This document shows, one piece after another, positions 12,006 through 63,238 of a stretch of DNA of 64,000 nucleotides. How positions within the stretch are numbered: position 1 is the first letter of the stretch; the number at the start of each line of letters is the position of its first letter. The translations under genes and the position numbers were made by a program. Source of the stretch: an archaeon GW2011_AR20 (GTDB lineage: Archaea; Nanobdellota; Nanobdellia; SCGC-AAA011-G17; GW2011-AR20); assembly GCA_000830315.1 (NCBI GenBank), contig CP010426.1, positions 60,670 through 124,669 of the forward strand. Direction: 5' to 3'. The notes beneath the pieces were generated by a model. That model was not told the origin of the DNA. It made no database searches and saw nothing but the letters and a program-made list of their open reading frames with translations.

Positions 12006-13325
12006 ATGAAAACCTGGCAAAGATTAGCCTTATTAGGAAGCTTATTTGGAGCATTAAATCTTGGTTTTAATAGCCAAAGTAATGCACAAACGCAAACCAA
12101 GAAGGTTAGAATTGTTGATGCAATACTGAATTGTGTTGACTCATTGAGGAATGTTGCAGGAATTCCAAATTTAAAAATCACTTGGGATGGCAATGCCTAT
12201 ACAACAAATTCAGAGGGCTATGTTGATCTGGTAACTGGTGTAAAAGATGACTATGATAACCAAAACAAAGATTTCCTAAATGTTTCTTTGCAGAATAATA
12301 GTTTAAATTTTAGTTACAATGGTAACGCCAGCATAAAATTCTATGATATTTTAGGCAGGGAAATTAAATCTTATGACGATTCTGAAAAGAACATTAACTG
12401 GGATTTTACAAATAGTTCAAATCATAGAATCAATTCCGGAACTTATTTTTATGTTCTGAATAAAAATGGGAACATTAAAGCAGGAAAATTGGTATTTGGA
12501 AAAGATTTCGGGGTTTATTTGGGAAATGAAACAAATGACAAAAAAGCAAATGTTATTTTAGAAGATAGAATACTAGCTAAGACCCAAGTTTTAGAAAATC
12601 AAACTTTAAGCATAAAAGATGAGGAGATGCTAAGTACAGACGGAACAAATAATCTGGGGGAATATTTTGACATTGAAGCTAATTATTCGGGCTTGGATGA
12701 AGTTCCGGATACAATTAATATGATTCCTGTTTTGCCTTTTGAATCAGCTAATTACAGGAATATTCTGCATTTCGTTAAGTATATAACAAAAACAGACGGG
12801 ACAACCCCAAATACAAGATTGAAGCGTTTCGAACTTCCAATAAAATCTTTTAGAAATGCTTCTACTGCACCGAATTCAAACTATGTTGCTGCATTTGATT
12901 CCGCCACTTCATCGAATCATGACAATTCTTGGGAAAGCATGACCTCATTTAATCATAAAGGACATATGTTGCCAAAAATGAATTTGTTTGAGGAAGTTTT
13001 TGTTGACCCAGATACGGGAATCACACTGGATTATACGAGTAATTTCAGTCATATGATATTTGATAAAAGAGATCCCAATAACTCTCCTTTACATGCAATC
13101 GTTTACGTGGATAAAGATAACTTAAGTAATAATCTGGCAATAATTAGTGATACTAAACACGAGAACGGACACGGGTTATTTGGGACAGACGTTCATAGTT
13201 CAGACTCGAAACATGCTATGCTCGGCGGGGGGGGTTTAGTAATATCTAACGGTGAAGGTAAATCAATTAGGATAATATATTCGTTATCAAATTTGGATGA
13301 TATAAAAATATATAAAGAAGATTAA
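12006..13325 (+). CDS. Secreted protein with HExxH-type motif (possible zinc metalloprotease)
   Basis: 439 aa; signal peptide MKTWQRLALLGSLFGALNLGF; HENGH near C-terminus. Confidence 0.35.
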   Translation: MKTWQRLALLGSLFGALNLGFNSQSNAQTQTKKVRIVDAILNCVDSLRNVAGIPNLKITWDGNAYTTNSEGYVDLVTGVKDDYDNQNKDFLNVSLQNNSLNFSYNGNASIKFYDILGREIKSYDDSEKNINWDFTNSSNHRINSGTYFYVLNKNGNIKAGKLVFGKDFGVYLGNETNDKKANVILEDRILAKTQVLENQTLSIKDEEMLSTDGTNNLGEYFDIEANYSGLDEVPDTINMIPVLPFESANYRNILHFVKYITKTDGTTPNTRLKRFELPIKSFRNASTAPNSNYVAAFDSATSSNHDNSWESMTSFNHKGHMLPKMNLFEEVFVDPDTGITLDYTSNFSHMIFDKRDPNNSPLHAIVYVDKDNLSNNLAIISDTKHENGHGLFGTDVHSSDSKHAMLGGGGLVISNGEGKSIRIIYSLSNLDDIKIYKED

Positions 13326-22224: not shown

Positions 22225-23558
22225 TAGAAGTTTTTGCAATTGGTGGCTATAGCGAAGTTGGAAAAAACATGACTGCCATTAAAGTAGATGATGAAATAAT
22301 CATTCTTGATATGGGGCTTTACCTGCCTGCTGTTTTGAAGTATGAAGAAGGGGATCCTCGTGAATTAACAACAAAGGATTTAATTAAAATAGGGGCTATT
22401 CCAGATGATGAAGTTCTTCACAAGTATAAAAATCAGGTCAAGGCAATTGTTCTAGGACACTGCCATCTGGATCATATTGGCGCGGCTCCTTTTTTAGCCA
22501 GGCATTATGACTGTCCTGTAATCGGAACAAGATACACAATTGAAGTCCTAAAAAAATTGCTTGAGGAGCATGAATATAAGCTAGAAGGGAGGCTAAAACC
22601 GATAAATTCAGGCACTCATCTTGAAATCTCTGAAAACTTAAAGATAGAATTCATTAACATCACACATTCGACACCGCAAACAGTTTTGATTGCAATCCAT
22701 ACAAAATATGGAATTATTTTTTATGCCAATGATTTCAAGCTAGATAATTATCCTGTAATTGGGGCTAAACCAAACTATGATAGATTAAAGCATTTGGCTG
22801 AAAAAGAAAATGTTTTATTGTTAATCATGGATTCTTTGTATTCAAATTCAGAAGGAAAAACCCCGAGCGAAAAAGTCGCGAAAGAAATGCTTAAGGATGT
22901 TTTGCTCGGAACAAAAAGCGAAGGCAATTTAATCATCATTACAACGTTTTCAAGTCACATCGCGAGATTAAAGAGCATAATTGAATTCGGCAAAAACTTG
23001 AATAGAAAAATTGTATTCCTTGGAAGAAGCTTGTTTAATTATGTCAAGGCTGCTGAAGCTTCAGGTATCGTTAATTTCAGCAAGAATGTTGAAATTATTG
23101 GATACAGGTCTTTGGTGAAAAAGAAATTACGGGAGATAGAAAAACAGGGGAGAAGCAATTATCTTATTGTTTGTACAGGTAATCAAGGCGAGCCAGACGC
23201 AATATTAACTAAAATAGCAAATAAAAAAGACATACAATTTGAATTACTGCCGAACGATGTTATAATTTTTTCATGCAGAACAATTCCTACGGAGATGACA
23301 ATTAAGAATCGTGAAAATTTGGAAAAAAGACTTAAGCAGTTCCATGCAAGAATTTTCAAGGAAGTTCATGTTTCCGGGCATGCATTTCATGAAGATCATA
23401 GGGAAATAATTAATTTGCTAAAGCCCAAGCATATCCTGCCCATACATGGCGATCACGAGATTACGAAAGGATTGGAAATTTTGGCCCTGGAACTAGGATA
23501 TAAATTAAACAAGACGGTCCATCTTGGCGAGGATGGAAAAATAATAGAGATTAATTAG
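22221..23558 (+). CDS. Metallo-beta-lactamase / beta-CASP ribonuclease (archaeal RNase J-like)
   Basis: 445 aa; HCHLDHIGA (HxHxDH) motif; size and layout of archaeal RNase J. Confidence 0.65.
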   Translation: MIEVFAIGGYSEVGKNMTAIKVDDEIIILDMGLYLPAVLKYEEGDPRELTTKDLIKIGAIPDDEVLHKYKNQVKAIVLGHCHLDHIGAAPFLARHYDCPVIGTRYTIEVLKKLLEEHEYKLEGRLKPINSGTHLEISENLKIEFINITHSTPQTVLIAIHTKYGIIFYANDFKLDNYPVIGAKPNYDRLKHLAEKENVLLLIMDSLYSNSEGKTPSEKVAKEMLKDVLLGTKSEGNLIIITTFSSHIARLKSIIEFGKNLNRKIVFLGRSLFNYVKAAEASGIVNFSKNVEIIGYRSLVKKKLREIEKQGRSNYLIVCTGNQGEPDAILTKIANKKDIQFELLPNDVIIFSCRTIPTEMTIKNRENLEKRLKQFHARIFKEVHVSGHAFHEDHREIINLLKPKHILPIHGDHEITKGLEILALELGYKLNKTVHLGEDGKIIEIN

Positions 23559-24027
23559 TTTTAAACTGCAATAAGCTCGAGCTTGTTTCTTCTAAAATTT
23601 TTCCGCTTTTTGTGTCCACTTTAATGTTAATTAAATTAAAATCAGTTGTTACCAAACTGATATTCCACAATAATTTTGAATCTAAGCTCTGGATTATGAT
23701 TATTTCTTTTGTAAAATTCTTATTTTTGTATTTTGGCTTGACTAATTTCACGACATTATCAAAACCGAATTTAACGTCATCCAGGTTTATCTCTTCAATT
23801 TTTTTAGATGCGGAGAATATTTTTTGATTATCTGTAAACTTTATACTTTTATCAACCAGAAAAGTGGATATCTTGTTTTTCTTCGGCAAATAATAATCAA
23901 ACTGCCACCCGCTTGACTTCTCTTCGTCTTTTAGCAGAAAAACGCTGCATAAGTAGGCATTTTTATGCTTATTTTTCCAGGATTTGAATTTTTCATCCTT
24001 CATTAACTGTTGGTATTCTTTAATCAT
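23551..24027 (-). CDS. Hypothetical protein
   Basis: 158 aa; 4-nt overlap with thrS start. Confidence 0.3.
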   Translation of the reverse strand: MIKEYQQLMKDEKFKSWKNKHKNAYLCSVFLLKDEEKSSGWQFDYYLPKKNKISTFLVDKSIKFTDNQKIFSASKKIEEINLDDVKFGFDNVVKLVKPKYKNKNFTKEIIIIQSLDSKLLWNISLVTTDFNLINIKVDTKSGKILEETSSSLLQFKTN

Positions 24028-25727
24028 TTAATTTCCTTGTTTTGAATTTCCTTTAAAACATCTTTTAGAAAGCTTTCTAATTTTACATCAAACTTAACTT
24101 TTCCGTCTCTTGTTCTTACTGCCAAAGTTTTCTTCTTTTGTTCTTTATCGCCGATTGTAAGCATATAGTTAATTTGCCTAATCTGGGCCTCTCTTACTTT
24201 CTTTGGAATGCTTTCATTTCTGTCATCTAATTCAACGCGGATATTGTCTTCTTTTAATTTATTGTAAACTTCTTTTGAAAATTTCAAATTATTTTCATTA
24301 ATGTTCATCACAATTACTTGCACGGGACTTAGCCATAAAGGAAATTTACCTGAAAAATGCTCTGTTAATATTCCGATAAATCTTTCAAAACTCCCGAATA
24401 TTGCTCTGTGAATCATGGCAACATGATGTTTCTTGCCGTCCTTCCCTTCATACATTAATTCAAGACGCTGTGGCATCTGAAAATCTAGCTGTATTGTAGC
24501 AAGTTGCCAGTCACGATTTAAAGAATCCTTAATATGAATGTCAATTTTTGGACCGTAAAAAGCGCCATCTTTTTCTTTAATCTCGTATTTAACTTTATTA
24601 GTTTTTAATGCTGCTTCCAAGGCTTTTTCTGCTTTTTCCCAAGTTTTTTTATCGCCAAGTGCTTTATCTGGCATTGTTGCAAGTTTGAAATTTGGTTTAA
24701 AATCAAATATTGAATAAAATTTCTTGACCAAATCAAGAACCTTTGTAACCTCTTCTTGTATCTGGTCTTCTCTGCAGAATATATGGGCATCATCCATTGT
24801 TATCTGACGAACGCGGAACATGCCGCCTAAAGCCCCCGACAACTCATTTCTATGTAATCTCCCTATTTCACTTAATTTTATTGGCAAATCTTTATAGCTG
24901 CGTAATTTTGAAGAATAAACTAAAGTTGCTTCGGGGCAATTCATCGGTTTAAGATAATAATTTTCCTTATCCAAATCTAAAGGAAACATATTCTCCTTGT
25001 AATGCTCAAGGTGTCCTGATTTTTTAAATAAATCTTCCTTGACGATTATGGGGGTGTTAATTTCCTTGTAACCATCTTTATCGTGAATTTCTCTCCAGTG
25101 TCTTTCAAGTTCTCTGAAAACTATCATTCCATTTGGCAACCAAAAAGGTGCTCCTGGACTAACTTCATTAAAAAAGAATAGTTCTAGTTCCTTTCCTATT
25201 TTTCTATGGTCTCTTTTTTCAGCTTCTTCTAATCTTTTTAAATAATCTTTAAGCTCATCTTTTGTATTCCATGCTGTTCCGTATATCCTGGTTAATTGCT
25301 TGTTTTTACTGTCTCCTTTCCAGTAAGCCTGGGCAATTTTAGTTAATTTAAATGCTTTTAACTCCGACGTATTTTTTACATGTCCCCCCTTACATAAATC
25401 ATAATAATTTCCATGTTTGTAAAACTGAACTTTTTCTCCCGGAATTTCTCTTAATAATTCTAATTTGTATTTCTGGTCTTTAAGGAATTTTTCGGCGTCT
25501 TTTCTCTTCATCAAAACCCTTTCAAAATTTAATTTTTTATTGCCAATTTCCTGCATTTTTGCTTCGATTTTCGGCAAATCTTTTTCTGTAATGTTAAGGT
25601 TGTCAAAGTCGTAGTAAAATCCGTCTTCTATGCTTGGCCCGATTGCCATTTTAGCATCTGGATAAAGTTCTTTTACTGCGCTTGCTAATAAATGTGCACA
25701 AGAATGACGTAATGCATCTAAATCCAT
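24024..25727 (-). CDS. thrS: Threonyl-tRNA synthetase (starts at editing domain; no N-terminal TGS domain)
   Basis: 567 aa; RHSCAHLLA motif at N-terminus; class II aaRS core and C-terminal anticodon-binding region. Confidence 0.8.
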   Translation of the reverse strand: MDLDALRHSCAHLLASAVKELYPDAKMAIGPSIEDGFYYDFDNLNITEKDLPKIEAKMQEIGNKKLNFERVLMKRKDAEKFLKDQKYKLELLREIPGEKVQFYKHGNYYDLCKGGHVKNTSELKAFKLTKIAQAYWKGDSKNKQLTRIYGTAWNTKDELKDYLKRLEEAEKRDHRKIGKELELFFFNEVSPGAPFWLPNGMIVFRELERHWREIHDKDGYKEINTPIIVKEDLFKKSGHLEHYKENMFPLDLDKENYYLKPMNCPEATLVYSSKLRSYKDLPIKLSEIGRLHRNELSGALGGMFRVRQITMDDAHIFCREDQIQEEVTKVLDLVKKFYSIFDFKPNFKLATMPDKALGDKKTWEKAEKALEAALKTNKVKYEIKEKDGAFYGPKIDIHIKDSLNRDWQLATIQLDFQMPQRLELMYEGKDGKKHHVAMIHRAIFGSFERFIGILTEHFSGKFPLWLSPVQVIVMNINENNLKFSKEVYNKLKEDNIRVELDDRNESIPKKVREAQIRQINYMLTIGDKEQKKKTLAVRTRDGKVKFDVKLESFLKDVLKEIQNKEIK

Positions 25728-25757
25728 AAAATTAAGTAATATTAAGGTTATTTAAAA

Positions 25758-26309
25758 TTAACTTTTATATTCATTTAAACTTTCAACCAAATCTTTTTCT
25801 GGTTTGTGTAAAGCATCATTATAAGCCCATTCAAGAGCTCTATATGCTGCTTCATATCCGTATTTTGATATCTCATGATCGGAATTGGATACATAACGAC
25901 CCATTACAGCAGATGCATATCCAAAGTTTATATGGCTATGACCTCTTAATGGCTTATCTAATTCTACTTTTATACATAAACTTGTTGCTTCAATAATTCT
26001 GCCTTCAAGAGAAATTCCTTTATATTTGGTTTTTATTGGTATATGATTTTTTCTTATGTTTTCTTCTATCTCTTCATACTTCTTCCATTCTCTTTTATGT
26101 TCTTCAATTTTTTGATGAACATAATTTAGTATTTTCTCTTCCCCTAATTTTGATATATGGGTGGGAACAACTTCATGTATTTCATGATAACATCCTTCTT
26201 CTACTTTCTCGGCATAAGTAAATTCAACTTTTCCAAAATGCTCTCTAAATCTAAGACCTTCTTCTGGTAAAATTATGTCTAATAAATTTTTATCAATTGT
26301 TCCTGTCAT
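25758..26309 (-). CDS. Hypothetical protein (gene 4 of tight 4-gene operon)
   Basis: 183 aa; no recognised motif. Confidence 0.35.
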   Translation of the reverse strand: MTGTIDKNLLDIILPEEGLRFREHFGKVEFTYAEKVEEGCYHEIHEVVPTHISKLGEEKILNYVHQKIEEHKREWKKYEEIEENIRKNHIPIKTKYKGISLEGRIIEATSLCIKVELDKPLRGHSHINFGYASAVMGRYVSNSDHEISKYGYEAAYRALEWAYNDALHKPEKDLVESLNEYKS

Positions 26310-26316
26310 TTTAGTT

Positions 26317-26619
26317 TTATTTATATTTCTTTAATAAATTAAAAATATCTTCTATATACTGAACCCCTTCTAGAAAATAAGTATCATAATTAGGGTCAAA
26401 TTCTCCGGCATTAAATGGTTGGCTCATTCTTCCATACCAACTACCTCCCATTCCCCCAGAAATCCCGCCATCTAAGATGCTTACAGATTTAGCATTTGCA
26501 TCTTTGATTAGAGCTTCTAATCTATAATTATCCGGCACACTAATTGGGGCGATACCTTTCAAGTGTTCTGCTGTATCTTTATCTGTTACAATATATGCAA
26601 CTTTAATTTGTTTTGTCAT
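26317..26619 (-). CDS. Hypothetical protein (gene 3 of operon)
   Basis: 100 aa; Gly-rich GGISGGMGGSWYG segment. Confidence 0.35.
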   Translation of the reverse strand: MTKQIKVAYIVTDKDTAEHLKGIAPISVPDNYRLEALIKDANAKSVSILDGGISGGMGGSWYGRMSQPFNAGEFDPNYDTYFLEGVQYIEDIFNLLKKYK

Positions 26620-26620
26620 T

Positions 26621-27235
26621 TTATTGGTTAATTTTTACCGCAGATAAAAGAGATTCATTTGGAGATTTTTTTCTATATAGCACCTCTATCAACGTATCCA
26701 ACGCAATTATTGTATGTTTTGAACAAAAATCAGCATCTGGGATTCTAAAGGAATATTTTTGTGCTTTGAATAATGCAGATAGATAAGGAAGATCCTCTCT
26801 TAAATAAATCGCTCTCGGAAATTGATTTGGCGATGACGAATATTGCAATGCGGAAGAATTCGGAGGCAGTAACCTAGACTCTAAAGTTATGCCTTTATGC
26901 CAGACAAAATCTATTTCTTCAAGGATTAATTGCTTGTTAGGACCAAAAGATCTTTGCTCATAAAATCTGTAAATTAAATTAATTCCATCTATGGGCTTAT
27001 AAATGCTATCTCCGTTTGGATTCAATTCAAACAGTGCATAATAATCAAGTTTTTTGCCTGAACGCTGTTTTGGAGTTTCCAGTAAAAATTTGAACTTAGG
27101 ACTTTTGTCTTTAACTTTTACTTTCCATCTTAAATCTTCAATTTCTCTTAAGTTTAATTCTAAATCTAATTTCTGCCTTCGAAAATCTTTGCCACTTTCC
27201 GCCTGTGAATATGAGTATATTAATTCTTTTGTCAT
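26621..27235 (-). CDS. Hypothetical protein (gene 2 of operon)
   Basis: 204 aa; 1-nt gap to neighbours. Confidence 0.35.
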   Translation of the reverse strand: MTKELIYSYSQAESGKDFRRQKLDLELNLREIEDLRWKVKVKDKSPKFKFLLETPKQRSGKKLDYYALFELNPNGDSIYKPIDGINLIYRFYEQRSFGPNKQLILEEIDFVWHKGITLESRLLPPNSSALQYSSSPNQFPRAIYLREDLPYLSALFKAQKYSFRIPDADFCSKHTIIALDTLIEVLYRKKSPNESLLSAVKINQ

Positions 27236-27236
27236 T

Positions 27237-28280
27237 TCAGTCTCTCCGAGATAAACTTTGACTATTTATCTTATTATCAGATATAGAAGTAAATGAAAAA
27301 ATTTCGCCACATAATTTTTCATCAAGACTTGCTAATAATCGATTATCTTGTGTTGAAAATATGGCGTATTCTCCTCCATTATATTCTTCTCCAAATTGCC
27401 TAACATCATATAAAGTGTTGCCGTGATTTACAAAATGGATAATTTTTCCTCCTCTAACATTTAATACAGGTTGTAACTCTGCAGGATCAGACAGAGTATC
27501 AAAAAATTTATTGTGGGAAAAATCCAATAATCTATCATTAAGCACGATAAATCTTGACCAACATTTTCTTTTTGCCACTGGTTTTTTATTCAAAATATCA
27601 AAAATAATTCCATCAATCCTTGATCCATAAAGATTTCCATTATAAGTGATTAGCTCAACGAAAGTATTTTCTTCCATTCTATTTGCCTCAAAAATCAATT
27701 TATTATCTAAAGTTTTATAAACTCCTGCGCGCCCATCATCGCAGAATGTTTCATCAGACGAGTCATATAAAACATTTTTGTGAGAACATATTGCATGGAT
27801 AGCACGATTCCTTGTAGCGATTGGTTTAATTCCCTTTTTTGTAGGATCCTTATCATAAATTTTATGATAAAGCCCATTTTCTTCATTGCCATTATACCAC
27901 ACATAATATAGTTTATTATCTTGAGCATAAACTTGGGTAATGTGGCCGTCAGACTTGCTCAATGCTTTTCTCCCTCTTGAATCATTTATAGTATTAAAAA
28001 TAAAACTATCCTGGGGAGTTGACCAAACATCAAACAATTTTCCCCTATCCAAATACAAAAAGCCATCAGAATTAAATGAATATACATAGTCCCCTACATG
28101 GGTCTTATTAGGGGGTCTTTCAGCTATTACCTCAATTTCTTGATTACTTAGATTTAATTTAAGGACATATGAATGATTTGATAAAAAGTTGTGTGCGCAT
28201 AAATAAAGACCATCTAAATTTTCTCCATTATTATTTTTTGTCATTTTGTCTTTCTCCTTAATTATTTTAAAACCACCCAT
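27237..28280 (-). CDS. Hypothetical protein, repeat-rich (possible beta-propeller) (gene 1 of operon)
   Basis: 347 aa; recurring hydrophobic-Tyr/Asn-Gly segments. Confidence 0.35.
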   Translation of the reverse strand: MGGFKIIKEKDKMTKNNNGENLDGLYLCAHNFLSNHSYVLKLNLSNQEIEVIAERPPNKTHVGDYVYSFNSDGFLYLDRGKLFDVWSTPQDSFIFNTINDSRGRKALSKSDGHITQVYAQDNKLYYVWYNGNEENGLYHKIYDKDPTKKGIKPIATRNRAIHAICSHKNVLYDSSDETFCDDGRAGVYKTLDNKLIFEANRMEENTFVELITYNGNLYGSRIDGIIFDILNKKPVAKRKCWSRFIVLNDRLLDFSHNKFFDTLSDPAELQPVLNVRGGKIIHFVNHGNTLYDVRQFGEEYNGGEYAIFSTQDNRLLASLDEKLCGEIFSFTSISDNKINSQSLSRRD

Positions 28281-28347
28281 ATAAATAATTTCTTGACAAA
28301 AATATTCCTATAAGAATATTTATAAATATAGGAAAATTCATTAAAGC

Positions 28348-28893
28348 ATGGTATTTGACATAACCCAATTAAAGAAAATCAGAAAACAGTTGAATTTAAC
28401 ACAACATCAATTTGCGATAAAAGCTGGAATAAGTCAAAGCATGGTTGCTAAAATAGAAGCAGGTAAATTAGACCCAACATACTCTAATATAAAAAAGATA
28501 GAACAAGCATTGGAATCATTAACTAAACAAGAGGAAAAGGAAGCCAAAGACATTATGATTAAAAATATTATCTCTGTAAATCAAAATGAAAAAATTTCAA
28601 ATATAATAAAAATAATGAATAAACATTCGATATCCCAATTGCCTGTACTGGATAATGAAAAAGTAATTGGATTAGTTTCGGAATCATCGATTTTGAACAA
28701 AAATTTAAAAGGCATAAAAAATTTAACAGCCAAAGGCATCATGGAGGAAGCACCTCCGATAATAGGCAAAAATGCCAGACTAGAGGTTATAAAACAGTTA
28801 CTGAGATTTTATCCATTAATATTAGTTAAAGAAAGGGGGAAATTGATAGGATTGATTACAAAAGCTGATTTAATTAATAGCTTAGTTTCATAA
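28348..28893 (+). CDS. HTH (XRE-like) + CBS-domain regulator
   Basis: 181 aa; LNLTQHQFAIKAGISQSMVAKIEAG HTH; two CBS-like segments. Confidence 0.55.
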   Translation: MVFDITQLKKIRKQLNLTQHQFAIKAGISQSMVAKIEAGKLDPTYSNIKKIEQALESLTKQEEKEAKDIMIKNIISVNQNEKISNIIKIMNKHSISQLPVLDNEKVIGLVSESSILNKNLKGIKNLTAKGIMEEAPPIIGKNARLEVIKQLLRFYPLILVKERGKLIGLITKADLINSLVS

Positions 28894-28941
28894 ACATTAT
28901 TTACCCAAAAATATTTAAACTAGCTTATACCCTTAATCAAG

Positions 28942-30489
28942 ATGAAGAAACTTGCCTTAGCATTAATTTTTCTTTTTTTTGTACCTTTTGTTACTGCAGA
29001 AATTGATGTTTTAACCCAGGCAGAGGACTTCTATAACATAAATGAGAGAATTCCTGTAAAAATTGTCGTTGCACATACGCAAGAAGAAGACGGATTTGTT
29101 AAAGCGGGAGCGATATGCGACAATGCAAATTTGGATTATTTTGTCAGTCCGATTTTATTAAAGACAAGCCCTCAAGAACTAACTATTCCTGATTTAAAAT
29201 TAACCAAAACCATGGCTGGGAAATGCTCTTTAGAAATTTCTTTGCTTGACTCGAGTAATGCTTTAATTGAGAAAGAAGTTGTTAAGGTTTTTGAAATAAG
29301 CTCTGAATTAATATTAAGCACTTCGTTGAATAAAGACACCCTCTCGCCGGGCGAAGAACTAAAAATTAAAGGTGATCTAAAAAACATACGCGGAGAATTG
29401 CTTGATAAAGGCCAGGTTAAAATATTCCTGGATGAAAATGAATTTAGCACTGAATTAAATAAAGGTGAATTTTCCTACACTTATTCGATTCCAAGCAATA
29501 TCAAATCAAATTCCCATTCATTAAAGATAAGCTATGAAGATGGTTTTGAGAACAAGGCAAGCAAGGAGTTCAGCATTTTTATTGCACCAAGACCAAGCAA
29601 ATTAAAAATTTTAATTAATAAGCTTGATTTCCTGCCGGACGATCAAATAACAATAGAATCATTGCTTTATGACCAGGCAGATGACTTAATGGAAAATGAT
29701 GCGGAAATTAAGGTTTATGGTCCCGATGGAAAATTATCAAGGCAGGGAACAAATAAACTGGATTTTAATTTGGAGGATCATGCCTTGCCAGGATCTTGGG
29801 TAATCAAGGCAAGCACAGATGAATTTAAGGTGGAAAGCACCTTCAATGTCGCGGAAGTTAAAAAAGTTGAAGTTTATGTTGAGGATGGCATAGTCTATGT
29901 AAGAAATATTGGAAACGTGCCATATGATGATGAAGTTGAAGTCAAGGCAATAGGAGAAGACGGCAAGGAATTTACAAAAAGAGTTCAAGTTGATCCTAGT
30001 GAATCGAGAATAATTAAATTAAGCGACGAGTTAAAGGAAGGAATTTATAACTTAAATCTCGCAACAAATGGCGAAGCAAAAAGCTTTGAAGAAGTAAGTG
30101 TTCCGGAGAGTGACGACCCATTGTATGTTACAGGAAAATCAGTCAGCAATACAATAAATGATTTAATTGATAAGCCTCTATTGTTATTCGCAATACTCCT
30201 TGCAATCATATTGGGAGGTTATTTCACAATTAGAAATAGAAGAATAAAGCAATTTAGGAAAGAGAAGGAAATACAGCAGGGATATACAAGGGCAAGGGAA
30301 ATAGAACAGCAAAAAATTAAGCAGGGGATTACTCCAAGAAAATTCAATATAAACAAAGACGAAGCAAAAGACTTCACAAGCCAGATGCTGAAAAGAATGG
30401 ATGAAAAAAGGCAGAATAATGAAAACCCCTCCAGCAAATCCAGAAGAGATGAGGATAACAAACCGGGATTATTTGGAATGTTTAACTAA
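28942..30489 (+). CDS. Secreted surface protein with C-terminal TM anchor and basic cytoplasmic tail
   Basis: 515 aa; signal peptide MKKLALALIFLFFVPFVTA; C-terminal LLLFAILLAIILGGYFTIRNRR. Confidence 0.4.
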   Translation: MKKLALALIFLFFVPFVTAEIDVLTQAEDFYNINERIPVKIVVAHTQEEDGFVKAGAICDNANLDYFVSPILLKTSPQELTIPDLKLTKTMAGKCSLEISLLDSSNALIEKEVVKVFEISSELILSTSLNKDTLSPGEELKIKGDLKNIRGELLDKGQVKIFLDENEFSTELNKGEFSYTYSIPSNIKSNSHSLKISYEDGFENKASKEFSIFIAPRPSKLKILINKLDFLPDDQITIESLLYDQADDLMENDAEIKVYGPDGKLSRQGTNKLDFNLEDHALPGSWVIKASTDEFKVESTFNVAEVKKVEVYVEDGIVYVRNIGNVPYDDEVEVKAIGEDGKEFTKRVQVDPSESRIIKLSDELKEGIYNLNLATNGEAKSFEEVSVPESDDPLYVTGKSVSNTINDLIDKPLLLFAILLAIILGGYFTIRNRRIKQFRKEKEIQQGYTRAREIEQQKIKQGITPRKFNINKDEAKDFTSQMLKRMDEKRQNNENPSSKSRRDEDNKPGLFGMFN

Positions 30490-61650: not shown

Positions 61651-61851
61651 ATGTTTGAGCCGGAATTTCAAAAACCTACTTTCAGGCAAAAAATCAAGGA
61701 TTTTATAGTTGAAAGTGGCAGGGTATTTAGGTTGACTAAAAAACCCAGCAATGAAGAATTCAAGATAATAGCCAAGGTAGCCGGAATCGGGGCATTAGTA
61801 ATAGGATTTATAGGGTTTTTGATACATTTAATCGCTCAATCAATAAAATGA
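61651..61851 (+). CDS. secE: Protein translocase subunit SecE / Sec61-gamma
   Basis: 66 aa; single C-terminal TM helix; position upstream of spt5-rpl11. Confidence 0.7.
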   Translation: MFEPEFQKPTFRQKIKDFIVESGRVFRLTKKPSNEEFKIIAKVAGIGALVIGFIGFLIHLIAQSIK

Positions 61852-62321
61852 CAAAAATATTTGCTTTGAGAACAACGGCAAACAGAGAAGAACAGGTACT
61901 GGAGTTTGTTAGTTCAAACGCTAAAAAAAAGAACTTAAATGTCTATTCTCTGGTAAGACCTCACGGAATGAAAGGTTATATCTTCATTGAGGCAGAGACA
62001 AAAGACGATGCCGAAAATGCTTATCGCGGGGTCCCATATGCACGTGGACTGCTTCCAAGCCCTGTTGCTTATCAGGAAATAGAGCACATGCTTGAACAGG
62101 CAAAAACCCAATTTAACATTAAGAAGAATGATATTGTTGAGATCATTTCAGGTCCGTTTAAAAGAGAGAAAGCAAAAATTTCTAGGATTGACAAGCAGAA
62201 AGAAGAGGTTGTTGTTGAATTGCTTGAAGCAGCTGTTCCAATTCCAATTACAGTAAAAATGGACTCTGTAAAGGTCATAAGAAGGGAAGGCGAGGAAGCT
62301 GTTGAGGAAGAAGATGACTAA
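61848..62321 (+). CDS. spt5: Transcription elongation factor Spt5 (NusG homologue)
   Basis: 157 aa; NGN-like N-terminus and KOW-like NDIVEIISGPFKREKAKI; conserved secE-spt5-rpl11 order. Confidence 0.8.
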   Translation: MTKIFALRTTANREEQVLEFVSSNAKKKNLNVYSLVRPHGMKGYIFIEAETKDDAENAYRGVPYARGLLPSPVAYQEIEHMLEQAKTQFNIKKNDIVEIISGPFKREKAKISRIDKQKEEVVVELLEAAVPIPITVKMDSVKVIRREGEEAVEEEDD

Positions 62322-63137: not shown

Positions 63138-63238
63138 GGGGATATGGTCTAGCTTGGAATCCTAACAAAAATTAGGGTGAGTAATTATGATGAGAGGTTT
63201 GGGACCTTTCGACCCCGGTTCAAATCCGGGTATCCCCA
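63138..63238 (+). tRNA. tRNA-Pro (anticodon TGG) with about 28-nt non-canonical intron in the D-arm
   Basis: Acceptor GGGGATA/TATCCCC + A; intact anticodon arm AGAGG-TTTGGGA-CCTTT (63193-63209); T-arm CCCGG-TTCAAAT-CCGGG; 48 nt between acceptor and anticodon stem versus about 19 expected, containing hairpin CCTAA-CAAAAA-TTAGG. Confidence 0.55.

Follow-up and report, generated by a model that had tools for sequence, protein, structure and literature searches.

Do four unrecognised genes packed end to end in a small archaeal genome make up a system of their own, or do they share little beyond a regulated promoter? The question is raised by positions 25758-28280 of a 64,000-nucleotide stretch of contig CP010426.1 (positions 60,670 to 124,669 of the forward strand, assembly GCA_000830315.1), hereafter the window. 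The DNA belongs to archaeon GW2011_AR20, a member of the Woesearchaeota within DPANN with a genome of 829 kb; AR20 is placed among the Woesearchaeota in PMC5994134. Here the minus strand carries, in order of transcription, genes A (27237-28244; 335 amino acids from its MTK start, in annotated form 347 from 28280), B (26621-27235, 204 amino acids), C (26317-26619, 100 amino acids) and D (25758-26309, 183 amino acids). They correspond to QT11_C0001G0100-0103, and all four are annotated as hypothetical. An earlier note on this DNA had described four tightly packed minus-strand genes of 347, 204, 100 and 183 amino acids and had offered them as a co-transcribed module, a candidate for an undescribed system in, for example, defence or modification. 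The packing is confirmed, with spacers of 1, 1 and 7 nucleotides between A and B, B and C, and C and D. Packing alone is no proof of a system, given that three of the four genes are species-specific and that the block is dispensable in the nearest relative. The best reading of the locus is a ligand-gated divergent operon of familiar type and not a demonstrably new system, one that holds two uncharacterised families, two orphans and a predicted regulator-operator pair. More specifically, and with a probability of roughly 0.55, a divergent regulator, its operator, a variable slot and gene D would form one regulated accessory transcription unit to which A, B and C are lineage-specific additions.

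The argument for this reading begins with the company that D keeps. Homologues of D were found in 17 distinct genomic contexts, and across related DPANN archaea the only conserved parts are the regulator, the operator and D. Behind the operator D is always the last gene, after a slot of variable content. In the window the slot holds A-B-C. Elsewhere (loci are cited by numbers prefixed L) it is occupied by an orphan of 157 amino acids in L095, by orphans of 232 and 77 amino acids in L103 and by metK (methionine adenosyltransferase; TIGR01034, E 2e-165) in L088, L101 and L105, and in L090, L097, L102, L084 and L104 it holds nothing at all. Relatives of A, B or C occur in none of the 17 contexts, and the cargo proteins of the other loci show no similarity to A, B or C. 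Because only the regulator with its operator and D recur in relatives, the locus is better regarded as a regulated accessory operon than as a new four-part system, and A-B-C-D as a conserved functional module is not supported. The co-transcribed module of the earlier note thus survives in part. The genes are tightly coupled and probably co-transcribed, since gaps of 1, 1 and 7 nucleotides leave no room for intergenic promoters; the conserved neighbourhood that it proposed to look for is absent, both from the D contexts and from the closest relative, L002, which lacks the block.

The argument continues with the DNA between gene A and the regulator. A bidirectional promoter/operator element of about 47 nucleotides (28280-28326, unstranded) is conserved across 11 loci. 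By alignment of these loci it comprises one TATA-like box directed towards the regulator (28317-28326) and another directed towards gene A (28280-28291), with the palindrome ATATTCTTATAGGAATAT (28302-28319), whose arms are TATTC and GAATA, between them; it also holds TTGTCAA. The consensus reads TTTATAAATATTC[CT]TAT[AT]GGAATATTTTTGTCAA[AG]AAAT(T)ATT(T)ATA. Twenty-one columns of the alignment are invariant; the arms are fixed, the 6-nucleotide spacer between them is variable and the half-site centres lie about 11 bp apart, all as would be expected of an operator for a dimeric helix-turn-helix (HTH) protein. The element is nearly invariant in the 11 loci while the proteins on either side diverge, to 35-82% identity for the regulator and 48-57% for D. 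The palindrome is present once in the window against an expectation of 0.23 copies, and TATTC-N6-GAATA was found once in 887 kb of unrelated loci. The element lies upstream of a D-containing unit in 11 of the 17 contexts. Among these are L084, L101, L104 and L105, where it precedes D or metK-D and where a regulator gene is not adjacent (L084, L104 and L105) or the contig ends upstream (L101). Given its retention in these four loci, the element tracks the D-side promoter and not only the regulator.

The regulator gene itself (28348-28893, plus strand, 181 amino acids; in the QT11 annotation a 'putative transcription regulator, containing CBS') encodes an N-terminal XRE-type HTH domain (Pfam HTH_3, E 1.1e-13, residues 8-56) followed by a CBS pair (E 1.2e-19, in two stretches). 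This architecture is identical to that of the archaeal XRE-HTH and CBS proteins annotated as 'predicted transcriptional regulator with CBS domains'. Homologues of 35-82% identity stand divergently beside D-containing units in L095, L090, L103, L097/L099, L102 and L088, and a regulator gene is divergently adjacent in seven distinct contexts. Likewise, the setting of the gene, with a palindrome between two TATA-like boxes, is the classic layout of an autoregulated divergent operon. A type II toxin-antitoxin arrangement does not fit, as the HTH gene is divergent and carries a CBS sensor, and A-D match no toxin family. The characterised archaeal CBS regulator HhpR is reported to consist of four CBS domains (PMC11705074), and only its CBS part matches, far below the cut-off. 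The literature search returned no characterised XRE-CBS regulator for metK, for D-family genes or for a TATTC-N6-GAATA operator.

Taken together, these features suggest how the locus may work. A-D would be transcribed as a single transcript from a bidirectional archaeal promoter held in common with the divergent HTH(XRE)-CBS gene. A regulator dimer would bind TATTC-N6-GAATA between the two back-to-back TATA-like boxes and so control the A-B-C-D unit as well as its own gene, which is probably leaderless. The CBS pair would sense a small adenosyl-type ligand, which would make the response ligand-dependent, and A, B and C would have been recruited as lineage-specific genes into the slot between operator and D. 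What makes S-adenosylmethionine (SAM) the leading candidate ligand is that other lineages have metK in the place of A-B-C behind this operator and that archaeal CBS pairs are known to bind SAM. Even as the leading candidate, SAM is a tentative choice and is probably not the right one. Control of metK in response to SAM is familiar from SAM riboswitches and from MetJ-type repressors. The likeness lies in the position of metK directly behind a conserved operator, here in three loci, and in the CBS part of the regulator adjacent in L088, a domain type known to bind SAM. The differences are that control here would use a protein operator and a CBS sensor, with neither an RNA element nor MetJ, and that the operator in the window precedes A-D and not metK.

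Several points weigh against a regulated accessory unit of this kind and have to be set beside its attractions. Regulator-operator binding, co-transcription, the ligand and the biochemical role of D are all matters that we infer, the first two from sequence alone. The element is absent upstream of D in 6 of the 17 contexts, including those of the two closest D homologues, in L091 and L092. The set of D contexts surveyed is small, with many short contigs, and the metK link consists of three loci from about two lineages. D is without any fold or sequence relative of known function. Finally, SAM is a guess, since CBS pairs bind many adenosyl ligands.

Of the competing explanations, the one that survives best holds that A-D are unrelated lineage-specific hypothetical genes that share a strand, the palindrome serving only the autoregulation of the regulator or being a general promoter feature. 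It accommodates the species restriction of A, B and C, the presence of D in many unrelated neighbourhoods and the six D contexts that lack the operator; for A-C taken by themselves it is plausible. It deals less well with the operator kept upstream of D or metK-D in L084, L101, L104 and L105, where it tracks the D-side unit, with gaps of 1-7 nucleotides that force transcriptional coupling, and with a D gene that is always last after the variable slot. As an account of the whole locus we consider it possible and, on balance, unlikely.

That the four genes are real is not in doubt. A codon-usage model trained on 25 long genes from the same window recognises A-D as coding in their own frames: minimum log-likelihood ratios per codon of 0.13-0.29 compare with 0.19 as the mean of the training set. 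Gene C has the second-best score of the four, and the open reading frames (ORFs) that overlap A-D in antisense or in other frames score negative. The only other strain, a second assembly of the same population (L106), shows no difference over 3.9 kb apart from two compensating indels in B; these alter residues 62 and 64-66 of the gene at L106 2070-2684 and are due either to faulty assembly or to a local frameshift that is tolerated.

The true start of gene A is most likely the MTK codon at 28244, giving 335 amino acids, because the annotated ATG at 28280 sits within the conserved TATA-like box, because GGAG precedes 28244 and because other assemblies call the 335-residue form. The distance from the right-hand TATA-like box to the first-gene ATG, 22-39 nucleotides in all loci aligned, fits a start at 28244 as well. 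The MTK and MTG starts to which the earlier note had drawn attention are real and unusual, only 5 of the 63 ORFs in the window opening with MT. The motif AAATGACAAAA occurs five times in the window against 0.32 expected (28236-28246, 27227-27237, 26611-26621, 61846-61856 and 12533-12543); the first three of these sites mark the starts of A, B and C, and the fourth that of an Spt5/NusG-like gene at 61848. A start context of the form AAATGACA is common to all four genes, the D start being AAAATGACAGG, and the orphan behind the same operator in L095 starts likewise, with ATAAAATGACAAAACAA. A reading of these starts as a sign of cassettes or paralogy was dropped, as AATAAAATGACAAAA is also the context in which the Spt5/NusG-like gene at 61848 starts; starts of the AAATGACAAAA type may more simply reflect a favoured initiation context.

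As the earlier note had stated, the proteins belong to no recognisable family: no significant match was found for any of the four in Pfam, NCBIfam, PADLOC, PHROGs or PDB sequences. Assignment of all four to a known housekeeping pathway, an outcome that the note had named as one that would speak against its proposal, was not obtained. The conserved member of the unit, D, belongs over its full length to a small family of DPANN proteins, uncharacterised and with about 22 members, that has 17 invariant columns and the motifs IRKNHI, LEGRIVEAT and VELDKP; its 21 homologues match at E 1e-34 to 1e-76 with 46-69% identity and 85-98% coverage. R86, K87, N88, E102, R104, E116, D118 and K119 of D make up a conserved charged cluster. 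The predicted model (predicted local distance difference test score 88) has a three-stranded sheet, a long helix, a four-stranded SH3-like sheet and C-terminal helices. It matches no solved fold, and the family profile finds no relative in PDB or Pfam, nor does D find one in the viral collection. A single PADLOC match, of 60 residues to a DRT reverse-transcriptase model at E 0.0023, is at chance level, and D contains no reverse-transcriptase domain. The protein may be an accessory factor tied to SAM or adenosyl metabolism. Two contexts of D homologues deserve mention in their own right. In L090 (1815-3209) two receiver-domain (response-regulator-like) genes and a 123-residue orphan come after the D homologue, an arrangement that hints at links between D units and phosphorelay signalling. 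In L091 (1209-1285) and L092 (1-110), the D homologues, 63-69% identical, share a different element upstream, ...TATTGAGTATTTTTTAATTTATAAATTTAATGAGTTTTT..., which is conserved between them; in L091 it stands divergent to a 165-residue gene starting MTKK.

Gene A is the second family of interest. Its product is a cytoplasmic six-bladed beta-propeller, by superposition on known propellers an all-beta toroid of four-stranded blades, which bears out the suggestion of a propeller that the earlier note had made for its repeat-rich protein. The profiles for Kelch, YWTD (LDL-receptor class B), WD40 and NHL repeats do not recognise it: no Pfam or NCBIfam match to A was found at E up to 1, and ten relatives of A are likewise without a match in either collection. 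Six-bladed propellers of the YWTD/LDL-receptor, TolB and Kelch types have only 9-12% sequence identity to A, which differs from them in belonging to a separate unnamed family that no Pfam repeat model matches. A word-indexed search of 5.8 billion clusters by exact 5-residue words returned self-matches only, whereas an exhaustive HMMER search of 1.84 billion representatives returned 34 remote relatives (phmmer E 7.7e-12 to 1e-3). Each of the 34 aligns with A in two to four matched stretches with the repeat register visible in the alignment, and tblastn gives E 1e-14 to 1e-15 against L107 and L108. The relatives are cytoplasmic proteins of 250-320 amino acids built from repeats of about 38 residues, with the consensus ALCSHxGxLYDxG..I..TL.N..IA.R and the signature CSHxGxLYD. 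At 16-28% identity to the other members, A is a degenerate or divergent member of this unnamed CSHxGxLYD repeat family. No relatives of A were found in the genome-contig and viral scans. Its role is probably that of a protein-binding scaffold. As for the relatives themselves, one (P0035) is fused to a Ser/Thr kinase, and in L108 (54-3589) and L107 (1-1327) they occur as tandem paralogues right after a protein of 622 amino acids that carries HEINH and DTSGSM (MIDAS-like) motifs and has no Pfam family. The best relative of A divergently adjoins a fragment of an adenosylhomocysteinase gene, a single observation that hints toward an adenosyl ligand.

B and C, by comparison, are species-restricted orphans. 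All copies of B are at least 98% identical and come from the same species-level population; no relative below about 98% identity that shares exact 5-residue words was found among the 5.8 billion clusters, and no family, PDB, viral, metagenome or phage match was found either. No membrane segment is predicted in B. The C cluster has two near-identical members, again from the same species-level population, and searches of the metagenome, viral and phage collections, of protein families and of PDB gave no relative. The Gly-rich loop reported in the earlier note exists as the stretch GGISGGMGGSWYG of this 100-residue protein; it is not a Walker A or P-loop. The stretch contains no GK[ST], does not satisfy GxxxxGK[ST] and has no Pfam match, and C was ruled out as a P-loop nucleoside triphosphatase on this ground.

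With the proteins in view, the proposal that A-D are one undescribed system, for example of anti-virus defence or modification, whose products act as a complex, can be judged more directly. Tight packing and the AAATGACA start context in all four genes speak for it, as do the accessory nature of the block and its place in a variable hotspot, the XRE-type regulator next door and the weak likeness of the regulator's CBS part to the model of a CBS anti-phage protein (51.6 bits, where the cut-off is 260). Set against these are the separation of A, B and C from D in all 17 other D contexts, the lack of relatives of B and C beyond near-identical copies and the failure to detect any nuclease, ATPase, methyltransferase or other enzymatic domain with Pfam or NCBIfam. 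PADLOC-DB 2.0 assigned A-D to no defence system, the D match (60 residues, E 0.002) being its only, chance-level return, and no viral or phage relative was found. A single four-part system is consequently very unlikely, and the earlier note's suggestion of a defence or modification function, together with the PADLOC check that it proposed, finds no support in co-occurrence, in defence models or in phage matches. Defence islands and similar hotspots flanked by conserved genes do resemble the locus in that content varies by lineage, both between the membrane-protein gene and thrS (the site described next) and within the slot. They differ in that the locus has neither a known defence protein or nuclease nor an ATPase or mobile-element gene, and in that some of the slot content is a housekeeping enzyme, metK.

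How the block came to occupy its site can be judged from synteny, for which the conserved neighbour threonyl-tRNA synthetase (ThrRS) served as anchor in 80 loci. In the window the site (25728-28941) is bounded by thrS and by a membrane-protein gene (28942-30489, 515 amino acids). L002, with a ThrRS 83% identical, is the closest relative and keeps the same order on both flanks: TrmB, DNA ligase, nitroreductase and a 519-residue membrane protein on one, and thrS, a 158-residue ORF, RNase J and DUF192 on the other. There the membrane-protein gene is separated from thrS by 74 nucleotides, and the HTH-CBS gene and A-D are absent. The site is empty in L005 as well, contains three paralogous Cys-rich secreted proteins in L003 and holds a TrmB-like gene and two small ORFs in L004. 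Given these differences among L002, L003, L004 and L005, the interval from the membrane-protein gene to thrS qualifies as a variable hotspot. The L002 spacer retains about 24 nucleotides that resemble the last codons of D, a remnant which suggests that the block was lost by deletion in L002 and not inserted in the window.

A hotspot of this sort invites the thought that the block, of about 3.2 kb, is the remnant of an integrated mobile element or virus. Its presence varies among close relatives at a site with lineage-specific inserts, its genes are orphans and XRE-type regulators are typical of proviruses. The marks of integration are nevertheless missing. The block contains no integrase or transposase gene, and the closest tRNA gene is 12 kb away. 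Its flanks show neither att sites nor repeats, direct or inverted, beyond AT-rich chance matches, and a comparison with 2.9 million viral contigs and 50,697 phage records gave no relative. Codon usage and the guanine-plus-cytosine content of the block are native, and what is left of the 3' end of D in L002 speaks for a deletion in that relative. The block could not be classed as a mobile element or provirus on any of these grounds, and such an origin is highly improbable.

The remaining neighbour is thrS (24024-25727, minus strand). The earlier note had placed the cluster downstream of it; in the direction of transcription the order is A-B-C-D-thrS, and the cluster lies upstream. A spacer of 30 nucleotides separates the D stop from the thrS start (25728-25757, minus strand) and contains the TATA-like TTTTAAATAA at 25748-25757. 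This spacer is nearly identical in L002, where thrS has no preceding gene, and because the TATA-like element is kept there without the cluster, thrS has a promoter of its own. That the cluster is a ThrRS accessory module, co-transcribed with thrS and perhaps standing in for the absent TGS domain or taking part in editing, is suggested by its position directly upstream on the same strand, 30 nucleotides away, and by a ThrRS without the N-terminal TGS domain, and was rejected as scarcely credible in view of the conserved thrS promoter, of equally TGS-less orthologues in L002 and L005 that have no upstream genes and of D homologues that lie beside thrS in no other locus.

The surroundings of thrS offer some observations of their own. 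The sequence of the ThrRS starts only at the tRNA_SAD editing motif, and the closest relatives of the enzyme outside DPANN, at 55-59% identity, are from Ignavibacteria and Thermoflexus, which suggests a bacterial-type enzyme gained by transfer. An ORF of 158 amino acids (23551-24027, minus strand) overlaps the thrS stop by 4 nucleotides (ATGA) and has no Pfam or NCBIfam family; it also follows thrS in L002 (76% identical), L003 (47%) and L060 (30%), and its product may be a conserved, translationally coupled partner of the TGS-less ThrRS. Elsewhere in the window, Rfam identifies on the plus strand an 86-nucleotide tRNA at 44632-44717 that ARAGORN missed, probably an intron-containing archaeal tRNA, and a borderline 64-nucleotide tRNA match, at the gathering score, at 63175-63238.

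A bolder version of the regulated-unit reading, which we regard as improbable and offer as speculation, is that regulator, operator and D make up a regulon conserved in DPANN archaea and specific to them, with an adenosyl metabolite, perhaps SAM, as the signal sensed, that its promoter-proximal slot repeatedly captures lineage-specific genes and that D is an unseen fold acting in SAM or adenosyl metabolism or as a partner of the regulator. If this were true, the slot would serve reduced symbiotic archaea as a nursery for novel genes or as a point at which these are exchanged. Further, DPANN genomes are tiny and a large share of their genes is unnamed, so that any regulatory handle is useful. 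The family D offers a small set of proteins with a confident predicted structure that solved folds do not match, and the unnamed propeller repeat family of A, found also in fusion with a kinase, is a further testable object. The XRE-CBS protein and its sharply conserved operator would join a very small number of predicted pairs of regulator and operator in Woesearchaeota-like archaea, and metK gives this pair a plausible link with SAM synthesis.

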